A program made the translations under genes and the position numbers. A stretch of 64,000 nt of DNA from a virus. The stretch spans positions 14,034 to 78,033 of the IMG/VR virus record IMGVR_UViG_3300042453_003699, one strand, 5' to 3'. This document shows, one piece after another, positions 2,773 through 56,850 of this stretch. Below the pieces are notes generated by a model. It was not told the DNA's origin and did not search any database. It saw only the letters and a list, made by a program, of their open reading frames with translations. Every line of letters starts with the position of its first letter. Position 1 is the stretch's first letter.

Positions 2773-3206
2773 GCTTTTCTCCCTGCGAGTTGGATGATCC
2801 ACACCAACAACTCTGAAAACAAAGTCGCTCCATTGAGGGTAAAATCTAGCATTTCCCAATCAAAACTAGGGTCGCTCGGCGCGATGACTCGCGTGAGCGG
2901 GATTTTTTCCTCAATCTTGCTTTCGTACATCTTAAAAACAGTTTCACCGTTGGGTCGTATTTCAACCACATTCGGCGGAAACTTTTCTCTGGCTTCCCCA
3001 GACACCCCTTTGATGAACAAAGGCTGACCTACCCGATACAAGGAGTGCGACACAAATTTGAAAGTGTGCCCGACTTTGAACGGGTACTCAGAGTCGGAGG
3101 AGGGGTTGATCTTTACGATCAACCCGTTGCTAAGACGGTAAGCCTCCCACGGCAAGGTGTGGGCTAAGTTGTACCTGTCGTATAGACCGTACAGATCAAA
3201 GGTCAT
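2769..3206 (-). CDS. Hypothetical protein
   Basis: 145-aa ORF with 4-nt start/stop overlaps to both neighbours. Confidence 0.65.
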   Translation of the reverse strand: MTFDLYGLYDRYNLAHTLPWEAYRLSNGLIVKINPSSDSEYPFKVGHTFKFVSHSLYRVGQPLFIKGVSGEAREKFPPNVVEIRPNGETVFKMYESKIEEKIPLTRVIAPSDPSFDWEMLDFTLNGATLFSELLVWIIQLAGRKA

Positions 3207-3508
3207 CGGATCAGCGGTCCTTTAGATTCTGGGGGCATATTCGTTGCGGTGATGATCCCCGTGTCTTTCTGAATCCAGAAGTTCGTGTACGATTCCCGCA
3301 TCGAATCCTTCAGGTCAGACTCTACCGCGACCTTTTCTTTTCTTACCTTCATCTTCTTCTCGAAGAGGGGGTGCAAACCAAGACCGAACTGACCCGCTTG
3401 ATTCGGAACAGCCATCAGGGGCTTGGTTAGAATCAGGTAGTCCCCTTCCTCCTGAACTTCTGAGAGAAAGATTCCAACGCCATCAATAACTAAAGTTTTT
3501 ACTTCCAT
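3203..3508 (-). CDS. Phage Sm-like domain protein (putative)
   Basis: GGAGG RBS; beta-rich L.KP motif and C-terminal TGIIT tail resembling phage Sm-like proteins. Confidence 0.5.
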   Translation of the reverse strand: MEVKTLVIDGVGIFLSEVQEEGDYLILTKPLMAVPNQAGQFGLGLHPLFEKKMKVRKEKVAVESDLKDSMRESYTNFWIQKDTGIITATNMPPESKGPLIR

Positions 3509-3549
3509 TTGGTCCTCCGCCGAAAACAGACTATCGCGCTAATCGGGTT

Positions 3550-4389
3550 ATGTCTATATTAGTATCAGGGGGCGCTTTGAAAAGATTCACAGGGGCGGTA
3601 AAGCCGTTTTTCAATCTGGATGGTCTGAATCTCACTATTAGATATGGCGAGGTTGTTTCTCTTGCGGAGTGGCAGACGAGTCACCCGAGCTTTCGTTTTG
3701 CCTTAGAGAATGGGTGGGTAGTCTCCGTGGATCGCAAAACTATCGTCTTCAACGCCGAAACCCCAAAGAAGCCAAGTAACGCTATGCGTTCTAAAAGAAA
3801 GAAATCCGCCGAAATCGTACAGGAGTTGCCAGAAAGCGGTTTAGATCCTGTGATTCTTCAAACAATCTTGGATAAGCAGGAGGGGTTCGTGCGACAAGCC
3901 CAAAAAACCTTTGAACGCCTAACGGCTCAGAAAAAAGAACCAGAGCAACCGACGGTAACGCCTGAGATGTTTGCCTCGATGCTAGAGAACCAACGCAAGA
4001 TGATGGAGATGCTCGAAAAAGAGAAACAGCAACCAGTGCCCCAAGCCCCCGCCTTGGATCAAACCGCAGTGCTGAATGCTCTCAAGCTCCTGACTAATGA
4101 GGTCAAGCGTCTTCAAGAATCAAAACCATCAGAAGCGTCTGTGAATACCGACCAGATTTTAGAGGGCGTAAAACAAGTAATGTCCCAGTTCAGTCCGTCC
4201 TCGGGTTCCTATAATGGAACTAAGAAAGACCCAAGTGGCTTTCAGATACGGGATGATTTTGAAGAGAAGTTCATTCCAAAAGTAGAAGACTTAGAAGTGA
4301 AGAACTCAAATATCGTAGCCCAAGAAAAGGACTCAGGAAGTGTTGAGGAGGCTCTCGCGGCTCTCCGAAAACTCAAGGAGAAGAAATAA
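3550..4389 (+). CDS. Hypothetical protein with coiled coil and C-terminal amphipathic helix; putative actin partner
   Basis: 279-aa ORF (alternative TTG start at 3577 with AGGGGG RBS); TAATG overlap with the actin-like gene; ends SVEEALAALRKLKEKK. Confidence 0.8.
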   Translation: MSILVSGGALKRFTGAVKPFFNLDGLNLTIRYGEVVSLAEWQTSHPSFRFALENGWVVSVDRKTIVFNAETPKKPSNAMRSKRKKSAEIVQELPESGLDPVILQTILDKQEGFVRQAQKTFERLTAQKKEPEQPTVTPEMFASMLENQRKMMEMLEKEKQQPVPQAPALDQTAVLNALKLLTNEVKRLQESKPSEASVNTDQILEGVKQVMSQFSPSSGSYNGTKKDPSGFQIRDDFEEKFIPKVEDLEVKNSNIVAQEKDSGSVEEALAALRKLKEKK

Positions 4390-5435
4390 TGGAACAGTTG
4401 CAAAACCAATCAGTCCCCGCAAGCCCTGTCGCTAAGGATAAGAAGTATCTTGTTCGCGGGTTGGATATTGGGACAGGTACAATCATCGCATCCTATCTTG
4501 ATGAAGCCTCCAATACGGTAAAAAGCAAGCGGGTTCGCGACGCATTCGTATCTCTTGCGGTCGAACAGAAGCAGATGCTCAAGCTATCAAACATTTCGTA
4601 CATTGAGGAAGGTGATCGAGTCATCATTGTCAGCGACGATGCCGCTAACATCGCCAACATCTTCAATCAGCCTCTTCGCCGTCCTCTCAGTCGAGGAACG
4701 ATCTCCCCTTCAGAGATCGAAGCACAGAAGGTTATCAAGCACCTCTTTCGTGAAGTTTTGGGGGAGGCGCAGGTGCCCGGATCGGTATGCGTGTACTCTA
4801 TCCCCGCAAATCCGCTCGACGCAGATCAAGATGTAACTTTTCACGAAATGATTATGGGGCAAATGCTTGAAAGCCTCGGTTGGAAAGCAGTCGCCGCGAA
4901 TGAAGCACAAGCCATCGTTTATTCCGAGTGCGCCGACACCATGTTCAGCGGATTTGCCATGAGCTTCGGAGCAGGGATGGTCAACTGCGCTCTTTCATAC
5001 AAGTCTATCCCTCTTATCACTATGTCGGTTGCCCGCTCTGGGGACTATGTGGATGAGCAATCCGCCAAGGCTACTGGGCTGTCTCCTGCAAAAACTTGCG
5101 CTATCAAAGAGAAGGGCGTGGATCTTCTCGCCCCGAAGGGTCGCGAGCAAGAAGCAATAGCAGTCTATTACAAGGCGCTCATCAAGTATGCTCTTACGAA
5201 CTTTATCGAAAAGATTAAGTCCCAGAATGTCATGGCGCAGATCGACCTGCCTGATTCCATTCCGGTGGTAGTCGGCGGAGGCACATCGCTCCCCATCAAC
5301 TTCCTTGCTGTGGTCAAGGAAGAGGTGAACCGCCTAAAGGGATTTCCGTTTTCTGTGACTGACATTCGCCATGCAAAAGACCCGCTGTATGCAGTTTCTA
5401 GGGGGCTTCTCATCATGGCTCAGAACCAAGACTAA
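4389..5435 (+). CDS. Actin-like ATPase, volactin-like family
   Basis: Phosphate-1 GLDIGTG, connect-1 NEAQA, phosphate-2 SFGAG, adenosine VGGGTS and connect-2 PLYAVSRG; ANIFN..LRRP and PANPLD segments match my recollection of haloarchaeal volactin. Confidence 0.85.
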   Translation: MEQLQNQSVPASPVAKDKKYLVRGLDIGTGTIIASYLDEASNTVKSKRVRDAFVSLAVEQKQMLKLSNISYIEEGDRVIIVSDDAANIANIFNQPLRRPLSRGTISPSEIEAQKVIKHLFREVLGEAQVPGSVCVYSIPANPLDADQDVTFHEMIMGQMLESLGWKAVAANEAQAIVYSECADTMFSGFAMSFGAGMVNCALSYKSIPLITMSVARSGDYVDEQSAKATGLSPAKTCAIKEKGVDLLAPKGREQEAIAVYYKALIKYALTNFIEKIKSQNVMAQIDLPDSIPVVVGGGTSLPINFLAVVKEEVNRLKGFPFSVTDIRHAKDPLYAVSRGLLIMAQNQD

Positions 5436-5445
5436 GGGAGTGTAG

Positions 5446-6801
5446 GTGTACTACTACTTATCCCGAGAGGTAAAACGACGATTCATTGAGGAGATGCGGG
5501 AAATTTTCAAAGAGTATCCCGGTCTCCAAAAGATGAAAGTATCCGATAAGTTTCCCTACCAAGAGAGACCTCAATACGGTCTTGTCGTCAAAAATGTCTC
5601 TGGAAACCCTATTCCGTTGGCAGGGGACAACTTCATCGGGACCGTCATAAGTCATTGCTTCTTAGCGAAACTCAAAGGCAAAAAAGGTCTTTTACTCGAT
5701 TGGGTTCGCGAGAACCCAGAACAAGTTACGGTCTTTGTCGAAGAGGATCTTTCCTCTCAGGTGGACGGATCTAGCCGAGAGTTTCTCCTACAGCATTTTC
5801 CTACAATCGGGTCTCAAAGTATTGAGTTGGCTCAAAGAGGGGATCGCGCCGTCGAAGTTCTTGTCAACGGAAAGCCTTTTGTCGTTCCGATGTCTTTCCA
5901 ATCTAAAAAGATCATTCTTCCGGTCGCACCTGCGATGGGAACCAACCTTGTTGCCAAGTATTATCGTCGGGGTCTGGCAGATGCGGGTCTTTATTATGTA
6001 GAGGTCATGACGACTACGGCAGGTTCGGCTACGGTGATGGTGGACACTCTTCTCGACTACGAGTCCATAATCATTGAATCCGCTACTGGGGCTGAGTCCT
6101 CGTTCAGCCTCCCTCACTTCCCTGTTCACGATAAGACTTTTTCTCTCATCGAAAACGATTCCTTCGTGATGACTGAGGGTGTTCACTACACGATCAATTT
6201 GCAGACGGGGGTTGTTACCTTTTTGAACAACCCAGAAGACCCGACTCAAAAGCTAAGACCTACCTCAAGTTACCGAGTTCAGTACAAGTACCAAGGACCG
6301 TCTTTCGGTCCCTTCACGGTTAAACCGTCATCAGCTTCGTATGATATAATTCCGGGCGTGACGCTTGCCTTCTCCAACTGGCTAGAGGTCGGGGACAAGC
6401 AAGTTGTGATCGTAAGTCCGACTCGTGAGGAGGTCTCTCAGGAGTACGGAGGTCACTTTGAGGTGAGCTTGAGTCTGGACATTTACAGCCGAGATCCCGT
6501 TCAGCGAGAACTCATAGCCGATTTGCTTGCTGTGAAAGTCTTCGGGGAGATCAAGCCAAGATTTGATTCTCAAGGATTAGCTATTGTTAGCGTATCACTC
6601 AATGGGGAATCCGAAGACATTTACGACGAAAACACAGACACCGTTTACTACATGGCAGGGATGGATGTCTCGTTCAACACGGATTGGCGACTGTACGCCC
6701 CGATGATTCCTAAGATTAAAACACTTAGCCTTGATGTTGAGGTCGTTCAATCACTGAATGATTTCAGGGTCAGCTTTAGCCAAGGGGAGTCGATAAAGTA
6801 A
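5446..6801 (+). CDS. Virion structural protein (neck/tail-terminator-like)
   Basis: GGGAG RBS and GTG start; lies upstream of the sheath; contains the EDLSSQ.DG beta module shared with the sheath. Confidence 0.6.
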   Translation: MYYYLSREVKRRFIEEMREIFKEYPGLQKMKVSDKFPYQERPQYGLVVKNVSGNPIPLAGDNFIGTVISHCFLAKLKGKKGLLLDWVRENPEQVTVFVEEDLSSQVDGSSREFLLQHFPTIGSQSIELAQRGDRAVEVLVNGKPFVVPMSFQSKKIILPVAPAMGTNLVAKYYRRGLADAGLYYVEVMTTTAGSATVMVDTLLDYESIIIESATGAESSFSLPHFPVHDKTFSLIENDSFVMTEGVHYTINLQTGVVTFLNNPEDPTQKLRPTSSYRVQYKYQGPSFGPFTVKPSSASYDIIPGVTLAFSNWLEVGDKQVVIVSPTREEVSQEYGGHFEVSLSLDIYSRDPVQRELIADLLAVKVFGEIKPRFDSQGLAIVSVSLNGESEDIYDENTDTVYYMAGMDVSFNTDWRLYAPMIPKIKTLSLDVEVVQSLNDFRVSFSQGESIK

Positions 6802-28941: not shown

Positions 28942-28951
28942 TTCCGCCGAA
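28942..28951 (+). promoter_or_regulatory. TTCCGCCGAA motif copy
   Basis: Exact copy 21 nt upstream of TATAAT. Confidence 0.7.
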
Positions 28952-28983
28952 AACCTAGTTGAGAGAATCTCCTATAATGGGGG

Positions 28984-29727: not shown

Positions 29728-29771
29728 ATAATCAAATGAATCACAACGGTCCAATGACCAAGGAGGTAACT

Positions 29772-31421: not shown

Positions 31422-31437
31422 GCCTCTATAATGGGGT

Positions 31438-33631: not shown

Positions 33632-33654
33632 GGTTCGATACTACCTTTGAGTCT

Positions 33655-33876
33655 ATGTCAGATCAAGATTTTCGGCGGATTTCTGCCATGCCGTTAGAAA
33701 AGGTTTTCAAAAACCAATCGTCTGCTCAGGACTGGATAGCTGAAAAGCTGTCCCTTGAACCTCACATGGTTCATGTAAATCGAGTAGAGGTTTTCGACGG
33801 AAAAGTGTCCACCTCGGGGAAAATCTTACTGGCGGGTGTGAAGCCCGTGAAGTTTGAGTTTGAGATGGAGCTTTAA
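33655..33876 (+). CDS. Small hypothetical protein
   Basis: 73 aa; TACCTT 7 nt upstream. Confidence 0.55.
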   Translation: MSDQDFRRISAMPLEKVFKNQSSAQDWIAEKLSLEPHMVHVNRVEVFDGKVSTSGKILLAGVKPVKFEFEMEL

Positions 33877-34333: not shown

Positions 34334-34350
34334 GAATACTAGAATTATTT

Positions 34351-37310: not shown

Positions 37311-37350
37311 TTCCGCCGAATCTTCAAAAATTCCGCCGAATTCACCGAAA
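37311..37350 (+). promoter_or_regulatory. Tandem TTCCGCCGAA motifs
   Basis: Exact copies at 37311 and 37331 plus a degenerate copy at 37341. Confidence 0.75.
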
Positions 37351-37390
37351 GGCGTTGACGCGACCATTTTGTTGTGTAAATTACTCTTTG

Positions 37391-37789
37391 ATGTCTGATA
37401 AGAACGACCAGAAAGAGAAGGACAAAAAGGACGGCATTGTGCTTAAAGCCATGCTCTCCCCTTCTGACATCGACGAGATGTTAGACCGATACGCTTTACC
37501 TGAAGGCAAGCGGACCAACTCTTTCGCTCGACAAGCCCAACTAGACATTCGTAGGCTTCTGTCTGAGATCGAGTTCATGAAGAGGCTACTGGACAACGGC
37601 TCCTTTTGCGGACCCGGCGTCCACGACCTCCGCATCATGACGACGAACTACTACAAGAAGATTCCGGGCACGGACGAGGACGATCGAACCTGCGCTTACG
37701 CCAGTCTATTCTGCACTAAGTGCGCGTGGACTAAGGAGATTGTGGCGGCGGACTACCGAGGTACTTACTTCACCAAGAAGGATGAGTAA
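37391..37789 (+). CDS. Hypothetical protein with a zinc-binding C terminus
   Basis: C...H and CTKC; follows tandem TTCCGCCGAA sites. Confidence 0.6.
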   Translation: MSDKNDQKEKDKKDGIVLKAMLSPSDIDEMLDRYALPEGKRTNSFARQAQLDIRRLLSEIEFMKRLLDNGSFCGPGVHDLRIMTTNYYKKIPGTDEDDRTCAYASLFCTKCAWTKEIVAADYRGTYFTKKDE

Positions 37790-39470: not shown

Positions 39471-39654
39471 GGGCAGACTTTACTAACTCGAATACAAATT
39501 CAGGAAACCCATTCTTCGAGAAGTCTCTTCGCTCGGTTTTTTCTTTAGACCACTGTAGATAGGCATTATTCTCAGGGGTCTCGTAGTTGTAGCAAGACAG
39601 GATCTTTTTCAAGACCTCCTCGTACTTCTGAGCTTTCAGCTCTAACTCTGTCAC
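39460..39654 (-). CDS. Small hypothetical protein
   Basis: GTGA overlap and AAGGA RBS. Confidence 0.55.
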   Translation of the reverse strand: MTELELKAQKYEEVLKKILSCYNYETPENNAYLQWSKEKTERRDFSKNGFPEFVFELVKSALNP

Positions 39655-39986
39655 TTTAGAATCCTTTCAAGACTGGCTATCTCTTCTAGTATAGTAGCGT
39701 ACTTCTCTTGAAACGATTCAGGGGCTCTATCGAACTTGTCGTCGTACTTCAGTTTCCGAGTGACGAAAGTTTTTGGCATCATGCCCATGTCGATTAACTT
39801 GGCTAAGTCGTCAAAGCTGACTGCTTTTCCTAGAGCGCCGAAAGTCCAGTTCACGAAAGTCGGGATAGACACTTTGCCAACATCAAGGATCATCTCGATC
39901 TGACTCTTCTTGGTGATCTTACCCTCTCGAACATAGTCCATGAGGGTCTCAAGGTACTTGTTCTCGTCGATCTTACTTGTTTTCAT
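39651..39986 (-). CDS. Hypothetical protein with C-terminal EI..LE motif
   Basis: Probable start MKTSK at 39986; ends ILEEIASLERILK. Confidence 0.6.
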   Translation of the reverse strand: MKTSKIDENKYLETLMDYVREGKITKKSQIEMILDVGKVSIPTFVNWTFGALGKAVSFDDLAKLIDMGMMPKTFVTRKLKYDDKFDRAPESFQEKYATILEEIASLERILK

Positions 39987-40212
39987 ACTCATCCCACAAA
40001 CTCTGACAGAACGCCCAAGTAGCATCATCCGAAGGGAACTTATCCTTCATCTTGTCGTGGCACTTGGTTCTCTTGTGCTTCGCGTCACCGACTAGGGTGT
40101 CCCAGAACTGCTTACGGGAGCCTTCGTTCCAACCCTCGGGCATGGAATCCCACTTAGTGGCTACTTTTGCTTCAAGAGCTTGGATCTGGGATTCGATGTC
40201 TTTTTTCTTCAT
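39973..40212 (-). CDS. Small protein with QI..LE.KVA leader
   Basis: GAGGAG RBS; 79 aa. Confidence 0.7.
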   Translation of the reverse strand: MKKKDIESQIQALEAKVATKWDSMPEGWNEGSRKQFWDTLVGDAKHKRTKCHDKMKDKFPSDDATWAFCQSLWDEYENK

Positions 40213-42180: not shown

Positions 42181-42651
42181 TTACTCTGCTAACCTTTTTA
42201 GCCAGTTTTTGTAGGAGTTTGTTACCTTTTTCACATACGCACGAATATGCGAGTTGTTGGTGCAAGCCGAAACCTTCACCGCGAATCCCGCGTTGTGGCA
42301 ACAAATGATCTGCTCGGGGTCGTCGAAACGCTCCGCGCATTTCTTCAGATGCAGAACCCCTAGCCGTGTGTTCACGGAGGGGTTCATGAGTTCTTCTACC
42401 GTTCCTTTGAATCCCATCGACCGAGCGGTCGGGTAAAATAGTTGAAACAACCCTACGCTATAGGTCTTGAATTTCGGCTCGTATCTTAAAGCCTTGTGGT
42501 TGAAATTGCTCTCTACCTCCGCTACTGCCAAAACCAGAGCGGGTTCTAAACCATGAGCCTGAGCCGTTTTTTTAATCTCATCGTGGGTTTTGCTCTCTTG
42601 TGCAAAGACAGCGGAACTCACGAGGAGTAGTAAGATGGGTGTAAATTTCAT
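42181..42651 (-). CDS. Lytic transglycosylase (SLT) with signal peptide
   Basis: VES catalytic motif, GLFQL, HNAG; N-terminal signal ending AVFA. Confidence 0.9.
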   Translation of the reverse strand: MKFTPILLLLVSSAVFAQESKTHDEIKKTAQAHGLEPALVLAVAEVESNFNHKALRYEPKFKTYSVGLFQLFYPTARSMGFKGTVEELMNPSVNTRLGVLHLKKCAERFDDPEQIICCHNAGFAVKVSACTNNSHIRAYVKKVTNSYKNWLKRLAE

Positions 42652-43336: not shown

Positions 43337-43786
43337 CTATTTGAAGATCCAACTTAGAGCTTTAGTCAAACTATTCTCGACTTCTGGCTCCAAGGTGTGC
43401 GGGGGTTCAAACGCTACCCCCACAACGAAAGTTAAGGTTACATTCTTCAGTTCGCTCATTTTCTTGGGTACTCCCCAGTAGTCCTCAAGCCATGCGGTCA
43501 GCTCAAAGTCCGTGAGCTTTCTGATTACTGAGTGAAGTTCCGAGTCGAGCTTCTTCTTGTTGGATTGACTGAAAAACAACTCCTCGAAGGCTTCGCTGAG
43601 GTTTTCATCATCCAGATGAGAGTCCGTATAGTACATCGCCTCGGCATCGAGTTCGGCGGAATGTTTGGTCATATCGCCTAGATTGACCTTGATTTCATAC
43701 AGGATTTTACCCCGTTCCTGATCTTTCTTTTGGGTACTGGTTTGGAAAGAAGCCCAACGCAAGGCTACCCTATCCGCAGTTTTCAT
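43337..43786 (-). CDS. Hypothetical protein with KTADRVALRW leader
   Basis: Probable start at 43786 with GAGG RBS. Confidence 0.65.
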   Translation of the reverse strand: MKTADRVALRWASFQTSTQKKDQERGKILYEIKVNLGDMTKHSAELDAEAMYYTDSHLDDENLSEAFEELFFSQSNKKKLDSELHSVIRKLTDFELTAWLEDYWGVPKKMSELKNVTLTFVVGVAFEPPHTLEPEVENSLTKALSWIFK

Positions 43787-43828
43787 CCGAACGCGCCTCA
43801 TCCTCTATTATTTTATTAGGTAAATAGG

Positions 43829-46435
43829 ATGTTATTCAAAGAACTAGGGCTAACCGCCCAAACAGACGCTACGGGTTCGGATCTTTTCGGGTTTTCGGTC
43901 TCATTGAACGAGATCGGGGATCTTTTTGCAGTAGGGGCTCCGGCTCATCAATCCAATGTCGGCGCTGTCTACTTGTTTCGCCGAAACCACGACGGTTCGA
44001 GAACTCAAATACAGAAGATTACGCCCTCCGACTCTCCGGCAGGAGGAAAGTTTGGTTCCTCTGTAGCTATTTCAGCGGGGGTTCTGGCAGTCGGGTCTCC
44101 CAATGTCACTGGGGTCTCCGGCAGAACCGATCATGGGGCGGTTTATCTTTACTTCTGGGACGGCTCTTCTTTTTCCAGTGAACAGAAGATCATTCCAACG
44201 GGGGGTCAAACCCCGTCATCGGGCTCCTTGAACAATACCTACTTTGGACATTCCGTTAGTCTTTCAACCGATGGGAATTATTTGGCGGTGGGAAACAACG
44301 CCTCAAACGAGGAGGGTTGCCTAGTTTACGCCTATCAAAAAACAGGCGCTTCGTTCGCACTTGCGTCGGTCTTGTCTAATCCAAGGTCTGGCGCGTATGT
44401 TTCAAAGTTTGGTAAAGCGGTGTGTTTAGATGAGCGAGGAACCACTCTCGTATGTGGCGCTCCTATGCTCGCGTCCTCGGATAATCTTTCCGTAAAAATG
44501 GGCGGGGCTTTTACCTATGTCCGAAGAACAGCGTCATTCAACCTGATGGACAGTATTTACTTCCCATCGACTGGAATCGCTTTTTCGGAATTCGGAGCCT
44601 CCGTATCAGTGAGCCAGAGAGGTAGTATTTTTACTTTTGGAGTTCCGGCTTACAACAACCAACAAGGCGCTGTCGCCCTACTGTTGTCTTCAGCTCCTAC
44701 ATTTTCAATGAATCTCAGTCAGCCTGTTGTTTTTGAAAACCACGGATTTTTGATTGAGCCTACAGTGGGCACTGGGTCTAACCTCAGATTCGGTTCAGCG
44801 CACTCCTTGGATAAGCGAGGAGGTCGTCTTTTAGTTGGCATGGACGGTTCCGCAGACACCGTGGGAAAAACTTGGGTTTTTGAGATTTTTGCTGACCTTG
44901 GGTATAAAAATTTCAGCTCAGGTCAAGCATTTGAACAAGTTTTTGAATGGAACCCGCCATCTATCACTCAATCTGGTCAAAAATACGGGCAGTCTGTCGC
45001 TATGTCGAGCGATGGGTTGGTGACCTTGGCGGGAGCGCCTTATCACAATTCAAACGGATCGGTGTTGAGTTACAAGTCAAGGCTCAACTGTTCCTTGGTC
45101 GTTCAGGACATCGCTCACAATTTCTACTCAGAGCTTGAGGTAGACACAGGAATTGACTTGTCCTCTTACGACACCCCATTCAATGCCATACCTCCTGTCA
45201 GCAAGGTTGCCCAAAAGATGGTGAACACTGTCACCTATACGGGTCGCTTGGATCTGATTCTGGAGAAGACTGGATCTCCTTCGGGTAATTTGAGTTTTCA
45301 GTTTGTGTTTGGAGATGCGGTTGGACCTTATTCCGATCCTTCAGCGGTGATAGCCTCTTCCTCGAATCTTGCGATCAGTTCAGTGTCCTCGCTAGGAACT
45401 TATTCTCTGGATGTCCCGAACAAGCTCATCCAAGAAAACGATCAGGTGTGGATTGTTTTGGAGTTTGATTCGACCTATCTTTCTTCCGCCGATGCTTCAA
45501 ACTATGCGACCCTTTACGGAATCAACGGGACCTTCCCTGAGTTTAGGTCTTACAATGGGTCTTGGTCTACAGTCCCTAGCTTCGGTCTTTGCTACAAGCC
45601 CGTATCCACATACGCAGTCGGTCGGAGTGAATACGGGTATTTGAGTGTTCCTCCATTTGACATCAACAACTCCCTCGTTACGGCAAAAGGCGCACCCTAT
45701 TCAGTAAACGGAGGCGAGAAGATCATGCTCGAAAAGAACGGGTTTCTAAAACAAACCTTGTATCTGCCTACTCCCGCCGTAGCGGGTCAGCTTACTCAAG
45801 CCGAGCTGATTAGTTTCCTGAACGCGAACTTGGATGCTCGGTTTAACTGTACCGCTCAAGCCGCAACTGTGGGGGGCAAGGATGTCGTAGTGATTAGAAA
45901 CAACGACCTTTTCACTAACTACTACGGCGCTGTAGAAGCCCAAGGCTTCATCCGTGCCGACACGGAGTGGGATCTGGCTTCAAATGGTACGAATCCCGCC
46001 GACGATGCTTTAGCTTTTACGAACGGGGCGAACATCTGGCTTTTCAAACCGGATCTCATGGAGAACTTTGGGATCACAAAAACGACAGTCGCGTCGGACT
46101 GGCACGATTGGCATGAGACGATACATAAACCCCTTCAGAGTTTCTATTTCAGCAACTCCGATGTGGGGGGACCGCAGGTCTATTTCAGACCAAAAGTATT
46201 CATCTTCCCGATGGGACCGCTCGCGGTGAATTGGAGCTTGAGAGAGCTATACGCTTTCGTAGTCAATAACTTCGTTCTGAACCCAACCCAGAAGAAGGTC
46301 TTGGATATGAATGGCAACTACGCGCCCGCGAGCTTGTCCGCTCTCACGGATCAGACCTATATCAATTTAGTCCTACTGTTTCAGTACGATAGCGCAAATG
46401 ACCAACAGTACATAGGGGCTTACTGGTATCGCTAA
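43829..46435 (+). CDS. FG-GAP (integrin-alpha-like) beta-propeller protein with C-terminal virion domains
   Basis: Seven FG.SV...VGAP-type repeats, then beta domains and the shared ~150-aa domain. Confidence 0.85.
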   Translation: MLFKELGLTAQTDATGSDLFGFSVSLNEIGDLFAVGAPAHQSNVGAVYLFRRNHDGSRTQIQKITPSDSPAGGKFGSSVAISAGVLAVGSPNVTGVSGRTDHGAVYLYFWDGSSFSSEQKIIPTGGQTPSSGSLNNTYFGHSVSLSTDGNYLAVGNNASNEEGCLVYAYQKTGASFALASVLSNPRSGAYVSKFGKAVCLDERGTTLVCGAPMLASSDNLSVKMGGAFTYVRRTASFNLMDSIYFPSTGIAFSEFGASVSVSQRGSIFTFGVPAYNNQQGAVALLLSSAPTFSMNLSQPVVFENHGFLIEPTVGTGSNLRFGSAHSLDKRGGRLLVGMDGSADTVGKTWVFEIFADLGYKNFSSGQAFEQVFEWNPPSITQSGQKYGQSVAMSSDGLVTLAGAPYHNSNGSVLSYKSRLNCSLVVQDIAHNFYSELEVDTGIDLSSYDTPFNAIPPVSKVAQKMVNTVTYTGRLDLILEKTGSPSGNLSFQFVFGDAVGPYSDPSAVIASSSNLAISSVSSLGTYSLDVPNKLIQENDQVWIVLEFDSTYLSSADASNYATLYGINGTFPEFRSYNGSWSTVPSFGLCYKPVSTYAVGRSEYGYLSVPPFDINNSLVTAKGAPYSVNGGEKIMLEKNGFLKQTLYLPTPAVAGQLTQAELISFLNANLDARFNCTAQAATVGGKDVVVIRNNDLFTNYYGAVEAQGFIRADTEWDLASNGTNPADDALAFTNGANIWLFKPDLMENFGITKTTVASDWHDWHETIHKPLQSFYFSNSDVGGPQVYFRPKVFIFPMGPLAVNWSLRELYAFVVNNFVLNPTQKKVLDMNGNYAPASLSALTDQTYINLVLLFQYDSANDQQYIGAYWYR

Positions 46436-46441: not shown

Positions 46442-46476
46442 GTTGCTTTCCGCCGAAAAGGGTGGAACAACTTTCT
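46442..46476 (+). terminator. Hairpin after the FG-GAP gene that contains the TTCCGCCGAA motif
   Basis: GTTG..TTCCGCC/GGTGGAA-CAAC then TTTCTT. Confidence 0.45.
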
Positions 46477-46816: not shown

Positions 46817-47236
46817 ATGCAAACTACTGTTTATGTTTCTAATCTTCCCTACTCCGCCACAGACGCGGATCTCCAAACCTATTTCAGCGTCTTTGGAGCC
46901 ATCAAGACCATCAAAATGCTAACCGATAGGGAGACAGGTCGCCCTCGCGGTATCGCCTTTGTTGAGTATCTTGATGAAGCCACGGCTACGAACGCGATTG
47001 AAGGTACGGACAAGCGGGATTTCATGGGTCGCGCTTTGAATGTTTCTCTTGCTCGTCCAAAAGGACAAAAGCCTGAGCGCACTATTCGCGAGGCTCGCGC
47101 CCCGCGTGAGTATTCTCAGGATAACTACCGTGAGTATTCACAGCCGGAAATGTCTTGGCACGATCCGAACTTCGACAGTTACAATAAGCGCGATCGTCGT
47201 GATCGTCGCGATAATCGTCGTAAGTACGATCGCTGA
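46817..47236 (+). CDS. RNA recognition motif (RRM) protein with Arg/Asp-rich tail
   Basis: RNP2 VYVSNL, RNP1 RGIAFVEY; GAGGT RBS. Confidence 0.92.
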   Translation: MQTTVYVSNLPYSATDADLQTYFSVFGAIKTIKMLTDRETGRPRGIAFVEYLDEATATNAIEGTDKRDFMGRALNVSLARPKGQKPERTIREARAPREYSQDNYREYSQPEMSWHDPNFDSYNKRDRRDRRDNRRKYDR

Positions 47237-49158: not shown

Positions 49159-49168
49159 TTCGGCGGAA
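49159..49168 (-). promoter_or_regulatory. TTCCGCCGAA motif copy
   Basis: Exact copy in the divergent intergenic region upstream of the ligase. Confidence 0.7.
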
Positions 49169-49203
49169 TTTCCGATGGACTTTGGGTATTCCCTTGTGTT
49201 ATC

Positions 49204-50145
49204 ATGGTTTTAATGCGCTACGACACAATCTTACACCCTGAAATGATTTTGAACAAACGCGGACCTGAGTTCGCCCGATCTTTTTTGAAGAGTGCGCTCG
49301 ACATGATCGAGGTTCGCAAGGGCGGGGTTTACTTCGAGGCTCATGATCCGACCTCGCACTTCATCGCTGAGAGTCTCCATCGGGACAAAGTGTTCCTACG
49401 ATGTCTGACGACCTGTAAAATCTTCCGCGACCAGAAACCGCCGATTTACCACATCGGGCGGGACTTCTTGCAGACCCTTCAGAAAATCGACAGGGAGATT
49501 CCAGTCGATATTTTGCCAGAGAAGTTTCTTGCCTACTTTCAGTTCGCTGAGAACGCTATCTTCGATGACGATGGCGTGGTGGAAGGGGGGTATATCTGTA
49601 TTGATAGGGGGATCAACTTAGGCATGACTGAATCCCTTCAAGACAAGAGAGTTTTGAGTTTCACCTACTTGTGCCAACCCAAAGTCGAGGGCATGAGTGC
49701 GTTTGCCAGTATGACGGTGGAGCTAGACGCAAAAAAGATCAGCGAACTCTCTTCTGGGATCATCGTCGAGGATCACCTTCTAGGCGAAACCAGAACGCCG
49801 GAACAGATCGAGAAGAGAAACAATGTGTTCAGGGCGCTCCTCAACGCGACCATCTATCTCTTTTCGGAAGACCCTGTTCTTGAGAAGACTAGACCGTTTC
49901 GTGAGATGGGGTTCTCGGTCAAAGAGATGAAGAGGCGTGGTCTTATCATCAATGAGACTCTCGTACCGATCACTTTCATCAACCGAGAATACACCCGTCC
50001 CCGAGAGCGCCATGTGGACGCTACTTGGGTTGAGTCCTTCCCTCGTTGGCAAAGGTGTGGACCGAATTTCTCAAAAGTGAAGTTGGTTTTCGTCACGGCG
50101 CATGAGCGAAGATTCACCTCAAGGGAGAGTGAATCCTCCGCATGA
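49204..50145 (+). CDS. Conserved phage hypothetical protein
   Basis: 313 aa; C-terminal basic WV..FPRWQ.CGP..KLVFV..H motif; alternative leaderless start at 49213. Confidence 0.7.
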   Translation: MVLMRYDTILHPEMILNKRGPEFARSFLKSALDMIEVRKGGVYFEAHDPTSHFIAESLHRDKVFLRCLTTCKIFRDQKPPIYHIGRDFLQTLQKIDREIPVDILPEKFLAYFQFAENAIFDDDGVVEGGYICIDRGINLGMTESLQDKRVLSFTYLCQPKVEGMSAFASMTVELDAKKISELSSGIIVEDHLLGETRTPEQIEKRNNVFRALLNATIYLFSEDPVLEKTRPFREMGFSVKEMKRRGLIINETLVPITFINREYTRPRERHVDATWVESFPRWQRCGPNFSKVKLVFVTAHERRFTSRESESSA

Positions 50146-50900: not shown

Positions 50901-50932
50901 TCTACTATTTTAGTTATTAGGGGGTCTAGTAT

Positions 50933-51646
50933 ATGAGCGCACTCAAAAACAAGTTTTCGGCGGAATACAACGGCAGGGAAGTCAAGCTGAACAAGCCTAC
51001 CAAGGGCGACACAAAGAAGTACAAGGTCTATGTGAAAGACCCCAAGACTGACAATGTGAAGAAGGTGGAGTTCGGAGACCCAAACCTTGAAATCAAGCGT
51101 GACGACCCAGAGCGCCGCAAGAACTTTCGCTCACGCCACAAATGCGACTCAGACCCGAAAGCCAAAGACAAGACGAGACCGAAGTATTGGTCGTGTAGGT
51201 TCTGGGAAGGCGGTCAGTCCGTTACCGAGCTTTTGAACAAGAAGTCTTCTGTCTTCAAGGATCTGGCTGACGCGGCAGAAGAACTACATCGTATGAAAAA
51301 TTCAGGTGTAGCCCACATCAGAGGCAAAGGCATCGACTGGGAAGAATGTGAAAAAATGATCGGCAAGTACAAAAACTACAAGTCGGTTAATGTTCGACCT
51401 TACGACGATGCGGATGTGGTTTACACTAACAACAAGGTTTCCGTGTGGGTCTATTGCAAACCCGACGAGATTCAAGTCATCATTTTTAACTACCCGCTCA
51501 CTAAAAAGGTAGAAGACTTTGGGGATGACGACTTGGATGAAATGCACTCCAAGTGGAACAAGGAACTTAAAGTACGATTTAAGAAAGACTCTTCTACTGA
51601 AGAGGTCGTTGACTGGTTTAAGCACATACTTGACAAGTACGCTTAA
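50933..51646 (+). CDS. Basic protein with KK..FG...RRK.FR.RH.C...YWSC domain plus second domain
   Basis: N-terminal domain resembles a family widespread in large phages and giant viruses (DUF5754-like, from recollection). Confidence 0.65.
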   Translation: MSALKNKFSAEYNGREVKLNKPTKGDTKKYKVYVKDPKTDNVKKVEFGDPNLEIKRDDPERRKNFRSRHKCDSDPKAKDKTRPKYWSCRFWEGGQSVTELLNKKSSVFKDLADAAEELHRMKNSGVAHIRGKGIDWEECEKMIGKYKNYKSVNVRPYDDADVVYTNNKVSVWVYCKPDEIQVIIFNYPLTKKVEDFGDDDLDEMHSKWNKELKVRFKKDSSTEEVVDWFKHILDKYA

Positions 51647-51648: not shown

Positions 51649-51725
51649 TGGAGCGGGAGAAGGGTCTCGAACCCTCAACCCTCGGCTTGGAAAGCCGATG
51701 CTCTAGCCGATTGAGCTACTCCCGC
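51649..51725 (-). tRNA. tRNA-Gly(UCC)
   Basis: GCGGGAG/CTCCCGC acceptor stem, TCGGC-TTTCCAA-GCCGA anticodon arm, GGTTCGAGACC T arm, encoded CCA; TATAAT upstream at 51743-51738. Confidence 0.95.
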
Positions 51726-51779
51726 CCACTTGTCGGTATTATAGCCGAACATTCCACTAACACACAGCGTTAAAATGAT

Positions 51780-51808
51780 TTCCGCCGAATTTCCTTGATT
51801 CCGCCGAA
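51780..51808 (+). promoter_or_regulatory. Tandem TTCCGCCGAA motifs
   Basis: Exact copies at 51780 and 51799 between the tRNA and the methyltransferase genes. Confidence 0.75.
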
Positions 51809-51829: not shown

Positions 51830-52516
51830 ATGCAGAGGATGTATCTAGGGGACTGTCTGGAGGTCATGAAAACTTTTGAGCCCAAAAGTTTTGACCACAC
51901 CTTTACCAGCCCGCCTTACAACAGAAAAAGAAACGACAAGTACGAGCATTACACCGATATAAAAGACAACTACTTTGAGTGGCAGAAGAGCTGTTTAGAG
52001 GAAATGCTTAGGGTCACTCGTAGGTATGTTATCTACAACACTCAGACAAACTTCTACAACCGTTCGGACATCTACAGCCTTATTGGTCATTTTTCTCAGA
52101 AGATCATTGATATTTTTGTGTGGGAAAAGACCAATCCCCTGCCCGCATCAGGCAAGTCAGTTACAAACGCCGTTGAATACTTCTTGGTACTCGGTGACGA
52201 GAAGTTGGTGTCGAACAGAACTTACACGAAAAACATACTCCGTACCTCGGTGAACTCAAAAATGCCCAAAAACCACAAGGCGGTAATGAAGCCAGAGGTA
52301 GCCGACTTCTTCATAGAAACCTTCACAAAAGAGGGCGAGACCGTTCTCGATCCGTTCATGGGGGTAGGTACAACGGGATTATCCTGCAAGAAGTTTAATA
52401 GGGGGTTTGTGGGAATAGAGCTGAACAACACATACTTTGAGATGGCAAGTCAGGCTATGACCGGAAAAAGTGATTTGGCTCAATCAGAGTGCCTGTTCGA
52501 CAGCGAAAAGTTATGA
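51830..52516 (+). CDS. N4-cytosine/N6-adenine DNA methyltransferase (beta class)
   Basis: TSPPY before VLDPFMG.GTT. Confidence 0.92.
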   Translation: MQRMYLGDCLEVMKTFEPKSFDHTFTSPPYNRKRNDKYEHYTDIKDNYFEWQKSCLEEMLRVTRRYVIYNTQTNFYNRSDIYSLIGHFSQKIIDIFVWEKTNPLPASGKSVTNAVEYFLVLGDEKLVSNRTYTKNILRTSVNSKMPKNHKAVMKPEVADFFIETFTKEGETVLDPFMGVGTTGLSCKKFNRGFVGIELNNTYFEMASQAMTGKSDLAQSECLFDSEKL

Positions 52517-53364
52517 GTGCCCCTTCCTTCAAAATAATTAACGCCGACTGTCTTGATGCACTAAAAACCATTCCTGACTCTTCGATTGATCTCATCGTTA
52601 CCTCGCCCCCTTACGCCGACCAGAGAAAAAACACCTACGGCGGTATCAAACCCGAAGATTATGTCGAATGGTTTCTACCGATCTCCAAAGAGATTCTCAG
52701 AGTTCTAAAGCCGTCGGGCACTTTCATTTTGAACATAAAAGAGAAAGTGGTGAAGGGGGAAAGGCACACCTATGTCTTAGAGCTTATTCTTGCTTTGAGG
52801 AAACAGGGGTGGCTGTGGACGGAAGAGTTTATTTGGCACAAGAAAAACTCCTTCCCCGGCAAATGGTCTAACCGCTTTCGTGATGCGTGGGAGAGGTGTC
52901 TTCAATTCAACAAGGAACCTAAGTTCTCCATGTACCAAGATTCAGTAAAAATACCTATCGGTGACTGGGCAAAAAGTCGGCTCAAATCTCTGAGCGACTC
53001 TGATAAATCTAGGCAAGAGTCCTCCGTTGGGAGTGGGTTCGGCAAGAACATATCAAACTGGGTAGGCAAAGAAACAGTTTACCCGACGAATGTTATTCAC
53101 CTATCCACAGAATGCGGAAACAAGAGTCATAGCGCGGCATTCCCGAGAGAATTACCTGAATGGTTCATCAAGTTGTTTTCACAAAAAGGTGACACTGTTT
53201 TAGATCCATTTGCAGGTTCGATGACGACTTTAGAGGTAGCCCTCAGTCTTGGAAGAAATTCAATCGGAATCGAAAAAAACAAAGAATATGTAGAACGGTT
53301 TCAGAAAGAGCTACTCGAAAAGTTTTCTCTTGATTCCGCCGAATCTTTGTTTCAAGCTCCCTGA
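52513..53364 (+). CDS. N4-cytosine/N6-adenine DNA methyltransferase (beta class)
   Basis: TSPPY, HSAAFP, VLDPFAGS; ATGA overlap. Confidence 0.92.
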   Translation: MSAPSFKIINADCLDALKTIPDSSIDLIVTSPPYADQRKNTYGGIKPEDYVEWFLPISKEILRVLKPSGTFILNIKEKVVKGERHTYVLELILALRKQGWLWTEEFIWHKKNSFPGKWSNRFRDAWERCLQFNKEPKFSMYQDSVKIPIGDWAKSRLKSLSDSDKSRQESSVGSGFGKNISNWVGKETVYPTNVIHLSTECGNKSHSAAFPRELPEWFIKLFSQKGDTVLDPFAGSMTTLEVALSLGRNSIGIEKNKEYVERFQKELLEKFSLDSAESLFQAP

Positions 53365-53365
53365 C

Positions 53366-54370: not shown

Positions 54371-54400
54371 AAAAAAGAGCATGGGTGGTACTTTTTTATC

Positions 54401-54736
54401 ATGGCAATTCTTATAGTGGATGACGATAACCTCCTTCGCGAAACGATCAAGATGTTCGTTTCAGAGGTCAAGCAGTGCCCCGTTGACGATGCGGCGAATG
54501 GAGAGGTCGCACTCCAAAAACTATCTCAGTCAAAATACGATCTCATGGTTACGGATTGGGATATGCCTGTTATGGGCGGAAAAGAATTGGTTCAGCGTTC
54601 AATCGAACTCTACCCCGACATGAAGATCGTGGTTTTTTCGGGGTCTCACATTTCAGGGGAAGATCGAATCCCCTTCATCCAATACCTTCGCAAGCCTAAT
54701 GACCATGAAAGGCTCGCGGACATCATCTCCGGCTAA
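54401..54736 (+). CDS. Stand-alone response regulator receiver (CheY-like)
   Basis: ILIVDD, TDWDMP..GG, SG, KP. Confidence 0.9.
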   Translation: MAILIVDDDNLLRETIKMFVSEVKQCPVDDAANGEVALQKLSQSKYDLMVTDWDMPVMGGKELVQRSIELYPDMKIVVFSGSHISGEDRIPFIQYLRKPNDHERLADIISG

Positions 54737-54759
54737 TCCCCTCATTCCTACAATACGGC

Positions 54760-55125
54760 ATGAGGGATCAAGACCTTCGTGCCGTCAAAGAACTCCTTGG
54801 CATCAACCTAGAGCTTCAGAATGGGGACATCTTAGTATGTCCTAACTGTGGCGGTGCTTGCGCCATTTCTAAGGTCGGTCGCCTAAAGAATGAGTCCGTG
54901 TGTTTGAAAGAAGACCTCCTGTACCACTCCGATGATTTTGTGATCGCCGGAAATTCCGATGGAACCTGCGGTTGGTGCAAGAGAACATTCGTGAACCCAA
55001 ATAAGATGTGGGTCGCGGGGATGGACGGAACTCCCAAGCTGATCTCAGTAAACCCAGACGCGCCCTTCTATATGCCGCTCGATCCAGACAAAAATTTCAA
55101 GTTTGTCGTCTACGGGAAGAGGTAG
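54760..55125 (+). CDS. Zinc-binding hypothetical protein
   Basis: CPNC...CGWC; leaderless start. Confidence 0.65.
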   Translation: MRDQDLRAVKELLGINLELQNGDILVCPNCGGACAISKVGRLKNESVCLKEDLLYHSDDFVIAGNSDGTCGWCKRTFVNPNKMWVAGMDGTPKLISVNPDAPFYMPLDPDKNFKFVVYGKR

Positions 55126-55128
55126 ATT

Positions 55129-55138
55129 TTCCGCCGAA
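55129..55138 (+). promoter_or_regulatory. TTCCGCCGAA motif copy
   Basis: Exact intergenic copy upstream of TATAAT at 55166. Confidence 0.7.
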
Positions 55139-55178
55139 TCCTGTTAAGCTATTCTCGTTGGGAACTATAATAACGGGG

Positions 55179-55481
55179 ATGACTAGCGAAAACACAGAGT
55201 TAAAGCTATGGCAGAAGAAGGCGATTAGCCTTTACGAGAGATCCGTGTGTGATCTCTCCTTTGACCATGTTTCTGTGGAAGTAAAGACTGAACGAGGGCG
55301 TGCCTTCATTCAGGACATTCAAGAGCTTGGTTACGACTGTTGCCCTGTATGTCAGCAATTCGCTCCGATCGTGAACCTAGTGGTTGCTCGTCCTTCAGCA
55401 CTCTTCAAGATTTGTGAATGCGGTTATGAGGGTCCAGTAGACCGCCCGTATCTTTTTACTAATCTAAAGCAAACACAATGA
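55179..55481 (+). CDS. Zinc-ribbon hypothetical protein
   Basis: CPVC...CECGY; probable start at 55179. Confidence 0.6.
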   Translation: MTSENTELKLWQKKAISLYERSVCDLSFDHVSVEVKTERGRAFIQDIQELGYDCCPVCQQFAPIVNLVVARPSALFKICECGYEGPVDRPYLFTNLKQTQ

Positions 55482-56281
55482 CACAGTTGATAAAAGCGAT
55501 CCTCGAATTCATTAAAGGTCTCCATCTCAAAACGGTTACTCAACAAGAACCCCCTCGACCAAACCCACAGGATACAGCAAGTGGGATTGTAGCTCATGTT
55601 GAGAAAGAGCCGGAAGCGCCTCAAGAAGTCGTCGCTCAACCCCCGAAGGATGAACCCGCCCCCGTAGAACCCGAAAAGCTACTTTGGTGTCCTTTTGCCG
55701 TCCGCCGAAAAGAGAAAATGACTGTGCGTGGGAAGTACCGTAAGGGCTATCCAGAAGGCGCGGTGATACACTTTACCGCAGGGTCTTCTGCGGAGGGTTC
55801 CTTCCAACACGGCTTAAAAGAAAACTTCTGCTTTTTTGTGATTCACGAAGACGGGACGATCTGGCAATCTTTCCCGCTAGACTCTTGGGGCTACCATGCA
55901 GGAGAGTCCTTTCACCCGAAGTTAGGCAAAGGGGTGTCCCGATACCTAGTCGGAATCGAAGTATCCTGTGCAGGGGGTCTGACTAAAGCCAAAGATGGAA
56001 GTTTTGAGTCTTGGTTTGGTCGGAAGGTTCCAAGCTCACAGGTACGGTCTTTTCCAAAAAAGACAGGCAACATTCTGGCAGGTCACTACGCCATTTTCAC
56101 AGCCGAGCAAGAGAGAAGCCTTAAAAAACTCCTCCAATGGCTCAAGAATAACAACCCAGAGGTGTTTACTTACGACCTCGTGGTCGGGCACGACGAGGTT
56201 GCACCGAACCGGAAGAACGATCCGGGCGGCGCACTGTCGATGACGATGGATGAGTTCCGAACTGCTCTGTCTCAGGGTTGA
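55478..56281 (+). CDS. N-acetylmuramoyl-L-alanine amidase (Amidase_2), probable endolysin
   Basis: IHFTAG, HAG, GIE, GHDEVAP.RK.DPG. Confidence 0.9.
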   Translation: MTQLIKAILEFIKGLHLKTVTQQEPPRPNPQDTASGIVAHVEKEPEAPQEVVAQPPKDEPAPVEPEKLLWCPFAVRRKEKMTVRGKYRKGYPEGAVIHFTAGSSAEGSFQHGLKENFCFFVIHEDGTIWQSFPLDSWGYHAGESFHPKLGKGVSRYLVGIEVSCAGGLTKAKDGSFESWFGRKVPSSQVRSFPKKTGNILAGHYAIFTAEQERSLKKLLQWLKNNNPEVFTYDLVVGHDEVAPNRKNDPGGALSMTMDEFRTALSQG

Positions 56282-56822
56282 ACCACTTTCCACTCATCGG
56301 ATGGAACACGAACCCGTCGCCTTGATGGGTTATCCAGTATTTTTCGCATTGCTCTAGCTTCTTGGTTTCACTGCTTTCCCACTTTGGGTGCCAGACGAGG
56401 TAAGCCGTCCACAGTGGATTGATTAACATTTCGTAACCATTGAAGAATTCGATCTCAGTCCCGTGGTACACTCGATTGTTATGGGCGATCTCCCATGTGC
56501 CCTCCTCCTTCGAGGAGTGGGTGGAGATCAGCAAGATGTGCTGATGATTGAGGTTCTCCCTGTAACGATAAGGCTTGGTGCTATGCACCATATCTTCCGT
56601 GATCGGGATTGTTTTATAGCCGTGTTTCTTCAGAAACCGTCGTATCGAGGCATCGTCCCACCATCCCTTTTTGGGGCACTCCTTCTCTATTGAGGGAATA
56701 CTGATCCCTGTGAGGCAGTGGATGGCGTAGGTTCCGCAACTGCCCTTAGCGGGCGGGCACCTTTTTAGGATTTTTGGTTTGAACCGCACAGTTGCGTACT
56801 GATTCCAGTCAAATCGTTTCAC
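56166..56822 (-). CDS. Hypothetical protein, possible papain-like fold
   Basis: SCG..A...LTG motif; 3' end overlaps the amidase gene by 116 nt. Confidence 0.55.
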   Translation of the reverse strand: MKRFDWNQYATVRFKPKILKRCPPAKGSCGTYAIHCLTGISIPSIEKECPKKGWWDDASIRRFLKKHGYKTIPITEDMVHSTKPYRYRENLNHQHILLISTHSSKEEGTWEIAHNNRVYHGTEIEFFNGYEMLINPLWTAYLVWHPKWESSETKKLEQCEKYWITHQGDGFVFHPMSGKWFNPETEQFGTHPSSSTVRRPDRSSGSVQPRRARPRGRK

Positions 56823-56840
56823 TCGTTTAAGGTAGATGAT

Positions 56841-56850
56841 TTCGGCGGAA
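56841..56850 (-). promoter_or_regulatory. TTCCGCCGAA motif copy
   Basis: Exact copy 6 nt upstream of a -10-like TACCTT. Confidence 0.7.

Follow-up and report, generated by a model that had tools for sequence, protein, structure and literature searches.

A dispersed, polar ten-base-pair word is a probable operator at accessory-gene promoters of a freshwater phage

Introduction

Dispersed operators are well known in phages. In cluster A mycobacteriophages (L5, with gp71, and TipsytheTRex), operators and stoperators are asymmetric 13-mers, present in more than 20 copies at promoters and in short intergenic gaps (PMC9283540). Each site points along transcription, and the protein that binds it is a monomeric repressor of two domains (PMC9283540). 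Typical of this class, too, are sites that stop polymerase during elongation and a temperate phage as the source of the repressor, which joins a helix-turn-helix to a stoperator domain. Here, we describe a 10-base-pair (bp) word, TTCCGCCGAA, repeated across viral DNA from IMG/VR record IMGVR_UViG_3300042453_003699. The stretch analysed, called the window, is 64,000 nucleotides (nt) long and comprises bases 14034-78033 of the 78,033-bp record. Coordinates are those of the window unless marked otherwise; counts for the record, or genome, refer to the whole 78 kb. The sites are numerous, unusually exact, adjacent to promoters and partly phase-locked to -10 boxes. We interpret them as operators of one sequence-specific DNA-binding regulator, acting at host RNA polymerase promoters of accessory genes, and put the probability of this interpretation at roughly 0.65. 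While the kind of system is not new, several features are specific to this case. The word is a polar quasi-palindrome, it is phase-locked at four promoters, the phage is a probable jumbo with leaderless promoters, and a relative has a different word at orthologous promoters.

Other described sites differ in symmetry and in placement. Class II activators, such as NtcA and CRP, are centred near -41.5 at promoters with a -10 box alone. Sites for KorB, of plasmid RK2, are perfect palindromes bound by a ParB-family protein. The C1 operators of phage P1, a temperate plasmid-prophage, are 17 bp long and asymmetric. Finally, the expected spacing to the -10 element is 16-19 nt for a sigma -35 element and 11-13 nt for a MotA box.

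Compared with the cluster A system, the locus described here is alike in having a dispersed, asymmetric short word with little variation (15 exact copies in 78 kb), found at promoters and short gaps, oriented mostly with genes, and apparently used with host polymerase. It differs in that the word is a 10-12 bp quasi-palindrome, occurs in tandem pairs, is reversed at several sites and is absent from the interior of the long virion operon. Furthermore, the phage is a probable jumbo, and Pfam and PHROGs scans of the 78 kb revealed no two-domain repressor, integrase or sign of lysogeny. By analogy, the TTCCGCCGAA set may work like a cluster A operator/stoperator network. As for KorB and P1 C1, a dozen or more near-identical sites are dispersed at variable distances from many promoters, and the asymmetry is shared with P1 C1. 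However, no homologue of either binder was found here.

Public sequencing runs containing the sequence are lake and freshwater metagenomes. CheckV puts completeness of the record at 47%. A protein 100% identical to one from the record is found on a 345-kb contig elsewhere, and near-identical proteins occur on 345-kb, 120-kb and 77-kb contigs. Among complete relatives, the nearest is G008, a phage of 356 kb that has terminal repeats (GC content 34%, 57% identity). Given the identical protein and the size of this relative, the phage is probably a jumbo, and the record at most about half of its genome. Two further relatives, G010 and G006, have a GC content of 40% and are 74% identical in a 451-amino-acid protein, probably part of the tail, encoded at 5446-6801. 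Their synteny spans window positions -1150 to 33650. Sequence and protein searches found no close cultured phage. Similarly, megablast of the 28-48 kb stretch against phages gave no match, protein searches gave distant relatives only, and a 313-amino-acid protein had a single weak metagenome match.

Results

Exact copies of one asymmetric word exceed chance

Within the window, TTCCGCCGAA occurs exactly 13 times; dinucleotide-preserving shuffles average 0.18 copies and never exceed 2. The record contains 15 exact copies, where Markov models of order 0-5 predict 0.14-1.4. Hence, chance and composition are ruled out as the source of enrichment. The two copies beyond the window form a tandem pair, with a period of 21 bp, located 5.6 kb to its left (hereafter, the left-hand pair). 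With its sub-words, TTCCGCCGAA accounts for the commonest 8-, 9- and 10-mers of the genome. An initial annotation of the window had listed 13 exact copies, judged them over-represented, and noted tandem spacings of 20 and 19 bp. All positions and strands were confirmed, the spacings are correct, and the excess held in the k-mer check of the whole record. One-mismatch copies had been undercounted; seven were given, and the window has 22 (~5 expected), the majority in coding sequence. Other frequent words, TTCAAAAA and similar, proved to be coding-sequence words, and not regulatory. The exact copies in the window, and two one-mismatch copies, are listed below.

2971-2980, minus strand: exact copy, inside conserved gene 2769-3206(-)
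3515-3524, plus strand: one-mismatch copy CTCCGCCGAA, in the 41-nt divergent region heading the 23-kb virion operon
28942-28951, plus strand: exact copy, 21 nt upstream of TATAAT (28973-28978) in the leaderless promoter of operon 28984-30110
33671-33680, minus strand: one-mismatch copy ATCCGCCGAA, 4 nt upstream of the -35-like hexamer TTGATC
37311-37340, plus strand: tandem pair, period 20 bp, beginning 4 nt after a stop codon
43652-43661, minus strand: exact copy, inside open reading frame (ORF) 43337-43801(-), in the same orientation
46448-46457, plus strand: exact copy, between the stop of 43829-46435 (12 nt away) and a 360-nt non-coding stretch followed by an RRM gene
49159-49168, minus strand: exact copy, between divergent genes; the DNA ligase ATG (-) follows after 69 nt
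50956-50965, minus strand: exact copy, with TATACT following after 22 nt and the ATG at 50900(-) after 55 nt
51780-51808, plus strand: tandem pair, period 19 bp, between tRNA-Gly(-) and two DNA methylase genes(+)
53334-53343, plus strand: exact copy, within the final 31 nt of a methylase gene; the ATG of an IMPDH-family (IMP dehydrogenase/GMP reductase) gene follows after 22 nt
55129-55138, plus strand: exact copy, following a stop codon by 3 nt, with TTAAGC-16-TATAAT 5 nt further on and a leaderless ATG at 55179
56841-56850, minus strand: exact copy, between divergent genes; read in reverse, it precedes by 22 nt the TATAAT (56873-56878) that serves gene 56914(+) as promoter

Aligning 17 sites (the 15 exact copies, 3515 and 33671) confined the information, about 20 bits, to 12 positions, W-TTCCGCCGAA-W. 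Nothing else is conserved up to 20 nt either side, other than a possible extra C three bases beyond this block. The word had been described as an interrupted palindrome, TTC-N4-GAA. While the arms have this appearance, the centre, CGCC, is invariant and asymmetric. Furthermore, the perfect palindromes TTCCGCGGAA and TTCGGCCGAA have 0 copies each, against 15 of the asymmetric form. The three tandem pairs, with periods of 19, 20 and 21 bp, have A/T-rich spacers.

Such sites might instead serve DNA organisation or partition, as do KorB operators or the sites of Noc and ParB, with a spreading or bridging protein affecting transcription secondarily. Dispersal fits, as do tandem pairs two helical turns apart and outer arms, TTTCC...GAAA, that we take to resemble ParB-family sites. 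The motif-headed operon described below also encodes a winged-helix protein with a histone-like tail, whose generic fold matches include the centromere binders TubR and AspA. However, the site is never a palindrome, and no ParB-like domain was detected in the scanned ORFs, so the perfect palindrome and nearby ParB-family dimer typical of ParB, KorB and Noc systems are missing. In addition, sites track -10 boxes with base-pair precision, and none is inside the 23-kb virion operon. We consider sites of this type very unlikely, and the centromere-like function offered as an alternative in the initial annotation is not favoured.

Some further explanations were discarded. The word is too long to be a DNA methylation target and too intergenic to be a Chi-like site. 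Nor is it a host-wide motif; a search of 185,579 species genomes for the tandem-pair pattern returned 111 scattered matches, with no taxon prominent. The same pattern in a viral collection matched 6 unrelated contigs, and the 5 that were checked carried the pair alone. In the literature, the 10-mer TTCCGCCGAA was found only within primers.

The word adjoins promoters at more than one distance

Intergenic DNA makes up 8.4% of the genome but contains 11 of the 15 exact copies (p = 1.4e-9). The other four (2971, 43652, 50956 and 53334) are within coding sequence. Leaderless genes, in which TAnnnT precedes the start codon by 5-8 nt, are common in this DNA. There is no enrichment of classical -35/-10 pairs, and strong GGAGG ribosome-binding sites are found at some of the remaining genes. 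Leaderless promoters and starts, each with TAnnnT near the start, are at the following positions.

28973-28984
31427-31438
33631-33643
34340-34351
37377-37391
49200-49213
54749-54760
55166-55179

Only 27 TATA[AC]T hexamers occur in the genome, and four of these are exactly 21-22 nt from a motif copy. The copies concerned are 28942, 50956, the distal member of the left-hand pair and, reversed, 56841. The nominal p value is ~1e-7, or ~1e-5 after allowing for post hoc choice of the offset. Two further TATAAT boxes are 27 and 36 nt from copies. The four phase-locked promoters have a -10 box only, with the motif centred at about -38 to -40, in either orientation. These four loci resemble class II activation, in which the site has a fixed centre overlapping -35 at promoters devoid of a -35 hexamer. 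However, the centre falls 2-4 bp short of -41.5, the other loci differ, with sites at -25 to -75, and the word is not a true palindrome. A separate observation is that an identical 10-mer, TATACTAGAC, occurs exactly 22 nt after a motif copy at two loci: window 50928-50937 (-) and genome 8433-8442 (-). At the latter, it would drive antisense transcription into the end of a pyruvyl-transferase gene.

Gaps between motif end and -10 box are 8, 13, 21, 22, 22, 22, 27, 27, 31, 36, 36, 55 and 56 nt. The 27-nt gaps belong to 55129 and 33671; at both, a -35-like hexamer comes 4-5 nt past the motif. At 33671, the copy is followed by TTGATC, 17 nt, TAGTAT, 6 nt and a leaderless ATG at 33631(-). The 37311/37331 pair has gaps of 36 and 56 nt; TTGACG-16-TAAATT, with a leaderless ATG at 37391, follows 37331, the proximal copy, after 14 nt. 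Read in reverse, the left-hand pair has gaps of 8 and 29 nt, and 49159 has a gap of 31 nt, with TGGACT-18-TATCAT 7 nt beyond the motif, then a leaderless ATG at 49213(+). For the 51780/51799 pair, also in reverse, 36 and 55 nt separate the copies from TATAAT in the tRNA-Gly promoter. The one-mismatch site at 3515 is 13 nt before a -10-like box, GCTAAT, and overlaps the Shine-Dalgarno sequence of a minus-strand gene. The copy at 50956 also occupies codons 8-11 of an opposite-strand gene, 50933-51646.

We conclude that the motif is tied to promoters, though not at one distance. Variable spacing to -10 boxes had been noted before, as 6-43 nt. The variation stands, with a corrected range of 8-56 nt and four sites sharing 21-22 nt. 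The fixed spacing expected of a sigma -35 element, or a MotA box, was not observed. Hence, as the initial annotation argued, the word is not a simple -35 element; the variable distance suits a factor that binds at the polymerase site or next to it.

A related idea is that the word is a core promoter element, replacing the -35 hexamer and defining a distinct temporal class. It would be read by a phage sigma-like factor, or a sigma appropriator, in the manner of the T4 MotA box. This would account for the four sites where a consensus -10 box follows at a constant 21-22 nt and a -35 hexamer is missing. The copies are also exact, as in phage-specific promoters, and G008 encodes a protein with two sigma-region-4-like domains beside a NusG-like protein. 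Conversely, the other gaps are 8, 13, 27, 31, 36 and 56 nt, some loci have their own -35-like hexamer after the motif, and one of the four phase-locked sites is reversed. Moreover, the logo has no conserved -10 element at a fixed distance, and the 78-kb record encodes no homologue of the G008 sigma-like protein. A core element of this kind seems improbable to us.

Orientation and RNA folding

In co-directional contexts, the orientation of the motif agrees with that of the genes in 7 of 8 cases (p ~0.035). The trend is only suggestive because, at several sites, the clearest promoter is on the opposite side and faced in reverse (the left-hand pair, 49159, 51780/51799 and 56841). Hence, the earlier statement that most copies lie 20-80 nt upstream of a co-oriented start applies to ~8 of 12 loci, with the clearest promoter reversed at at least 4.

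Agreement with genes could also mean that the signal is read in RNA, as a processing site or small-RNA target within polycistronic transcripts. Within genes, TCCGCCGAA is on the sense strand in 7 of 8 cases, the single reversed locus has two complementary copies, and an RRM protein is encoded. Even so, copies share no RNA hairpin, folding z-scores scatter around 0, and 46448 is the only copy that pairs with its flank. A search of Rfam over the window returned tRNA only. An RNA hairpin or terminator is thus ruled out, and no stable stem-loop, as expected of a PeSL cassette or intrinsic terminator, is attached to the repeat. At leaderless promoters, the motif is upstream of the start, and hence outside the regulated mRNA, while several sites serve promoters in reverse. 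A signal at the RNA level is, in our estimation, highly improbable.

The word heads an operon encoding candidate binders

The copy at 28942 precedes an operon with the following genes.

28984-29727, plus strand: PD-(D/E)XK protein, 247 amino acids, first gene of the motif-headed operon
29772-30110, plus strand: winged-helix protein, candidate binder, with a disordered Lys/Ala-rich tail

The product of the first gene is predicted to have a type II restriction-endonuclease-like fold (AlphaFold predicted local distance difference test, pLDDT, 89.7). The best structural match is PspGI (Z 8.9 over 181 residues), and there are further matches to Cfr10I, SgrAI, Bse634I, EcoRII-C and NgoMIV. Candidate catalytic residues D128, D141 and K143 (D...D-x-K) are invariant. 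A gene of this type is directly before the winged-helix gene in the present phage, G010 and G008. Since the protein is 50% identical between the present phage and G008, it could have changed specificity. Note that gene position alone links it to the motif.

A gene encoding a nuclease-like protein raises the prospect that the word is a site of recombination or cleavage at cassette boundaries. It could act through microhomology, as in T4-type PeSL-like arrangements, or be the target of a nickase or of the restriction-endonuclease-like protein itself. Copies do occur 0-16 nt after stop codons, at borders of accessory genes without homologues in relatives. In both the present phage and G008, the PD-(D/E)XK gene, with invariant catalytic residues, is directly downstream of the motif, and three DNA methylases and a ligase are encoded here. 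These observations contrast with the lack of any stem-loop, or extended homology, around copies. Furthermore, restriction targets are normally depleted, not enriched, and the phase-lock to -10 boxes would be unexplained. We think a cleavage or recombination site quite unlikely.

The second protein, proposed as the binder in the initial annotation, is predicted to contain a winged helix (pLDDT ~90), with generic structure matches of ArsR, MarR and TubR type. As is often so for autoregulated factors, its gene is in a motif-headed operon, in both the present phage and G008. However, the recognition helix is invariant while motifs differ between phages (see Discussion), so we regard the protein as a candidate, but not the favourite, binder. 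A possible helix-turn-helix protein at 39651-40028(-) gave sub-threshold leads only in a protein atlas.

Neither sigma region 2 nor RNA polymerase beta was detected in any of three records, which fits use of host polymerase promoters. Searches for T7-type polymerase found nothing in the record or G008, but no control genome was detected either, so this result is uninformative.

Relatives share one site or use another word

In G010 and G006, there is no copy of the 10-mer TTCCGCCGAA. Their single CCGCCGAA in 45 kb corresponds exactly to the 3515 site heading the virion operon. It falls within 12 nt identical to the present phage, after which comes a second conserved block. The initial annotation had seen no exact copy in the virion operon. 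Indeed, there is none between 2971 and 28942, but this overlooked the one-mismatch site at the operon head, conserved letter for letter in a 74%-identical relative. At 2971, G010 uses other codons, and the word arose in the present lineage through the amino-acid changes Y>F and S>P. Contigs from four lake metagenomes provided one informative variant site. This is at 49159, where a 4%-diverged strain variant retains the motif although 3 neighbouring bases differ.

The 3515 word is missing from the orthologous region of G008, where TTCCGCCGAA is not enriched. An occurrence of TCCGCCGA in the G008 orthologue of gene 3550 is at a different codon position and was dismissed as a chance match. Instead, G008 has its own word, TTAC[C/G]GTAA, extended as TTTACSGTAAA (TTTAC[C/G]GTAAA), with 45 copies against 2-6 expected. 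Neither phage has the word of the other above chance. In G008, 44% of copies are outside ORFs, compared to 7% of the genome, frequently 10-60 nt before a start and at times in tandem. Two copies are 66-78 nt upstream of the orthologue of the 28984 operon and another is directly before the winged-helix gene. The word also precedes the first virion-operon gene (orthologue of 3550) and the operon containing the orthologue of 33182-33631. Hence, 3 of ~8 comparable orthologous units have a G008 site, which exceeds chance, as ~5% of genes are expected to have a site nearby.

The two words are alike in their A/T-flanked TTxC...GxAA form, strong enrichment, proximity to promoters and occasional tandem arrangement. 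Both are upstream of the orthologous restriction-like and winged-helix operon. The G008 motif differs in being a true 11-bp palindrome that is AT-rich, with a free central base and 1 bp less between the arms. These sequence comparisons point to an inherited regulatory circuit with a changed operator word.

Additional G008 features were observed. A second oriented motif of ~16 nt, GTGGAATCGGTATAGC, is found at loci L145-L162, mainly G008:121000-155500. Its 9-nt core has 33 copies, ~28 with the full motif. Full motifs lead an array of small genes, each motif followed after ~25-35 nt by an ATG that has a ribosome-binding site, and the G008 DNA ligase orthologue is also headed by this motif. From its sequence context, GTGGAATCGGTATAGC looks like a phage-specific promoter class. 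The sigma-like protein mentioned above is encoded at G008:187869-189178 (L140 700-2010), a region specifying a NusG/KOW-like protein with a Lys-rich tail and an adjacent 210-amino-acid protein. The latter has two sigma-70 region-4-like helix-turn-helix domains, and the 78-kb record contains no homologue of the pair.

Discussion

Our preferred interpretation is that W-TTCCGCCGAA-W is the operator of a single regulator, which is probably phage-encoded. We infer protein binding at the sites, and consequent activation or repression, from their sequence and placement. The sites lie on, or just upstream of, promoters that host RNA polymerase would read, with TAnnnT -10 boxes and often leaderless. 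Genes driven would include those for DNA methylases, DNA ligase, a nucleotide-metabolism enzyme, an RNA-binding protein and a tRNA, plus the restriction-like and winged-helix operon. A variant site would serve the head of the virion operon. Site occupancy may then switch the accessory genes as one set. At sites 8-22 nt from the -10 box, the bound protein would overlap the position of sigma region 4 and should either repress or replace the missing -35 contact. Sites 27-56 nt away, including tandem pairs, might support cooperative upstream binding. The operator or activator function suggested in the initial annotation is, overall, partly supported, given intergenic bias, -10 adjacency, the lack of RNA structure and the analogous motif of a relative.

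Some observations weigh against an operator set of this kind. Pfam and PHROGs scans of ~80 ORFs identified no helix-turn-helix regulator; note that this search was confined to 78 kb, with at least half of the phage genome outside the record. The winged-helix protein has the only clear DNA-binding fold, and 12 homologues, with identity as low as 41%, show no change in its recognition helix, S-x-R-H-S-R-R-T-L. These include proteins of G010 and G008, genomes without TTCCGCCGAA, and differences are limited to the wing and tail. Fifteen perfect copies, with few functional variants, is unusually exact for an operator set. Finally, strict asymmetry disfavours a simple homodimer, yet reversed sites share the 22-nt offset.

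The operator interpretation can be taken further, albeit tentatively. In this freshwater jumbo-phage lineage, a phage-wide operator might co-evolve with a lineage-conserved binder, being a palindrome in one member and a polar 10-mer here. One of two products of the motif-headed operon would be the binder, namely the histone-tailed winged-helix protein or the restriction-endonuclease-derived one. We consider this scheme rather unlikely as a whole. If true, with the restriction-derived binder, a restriction-enzyme fold would have become a global transcription regulator. An operator set would, in addition, provide a regulon map for an uncultured freshwater phage, indicating co-switched genes, promoters and leaderless genes. 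Likewise, TTCCGCCGAA and TTTAC[C/G]GTAAA would be a natural diverged operator pair, useful for finding the regulator and for studying joint change of operator and binder.

Additional observations

Three N6/N4 DNA methylase genes are located at window 51865-53364 and genome 46-1428. Two are adjacent and overlapping, and one has homing-endonuclease-associated repeats. The RRM-type RNA-binding protein is encoded at 46817-47236, and the ~360 nt of non-coding sequence ahead of it match no Rfam family. A lytic transglycosylase with an SLT domain, at 42181-42651 (-), has an N-terminal signal peptide, a hint that the host possesses a periplasm. There is also an Amidase_2 gene at 55478-56281, and a stand-alone response-regulator receiver domain protein is encoded at 54401-54736. 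The tRNA-Gly gene (anticodon TCC) is at 51649-51743 (-), with a consensus TATAAT 12 nt before the mature 5' end.

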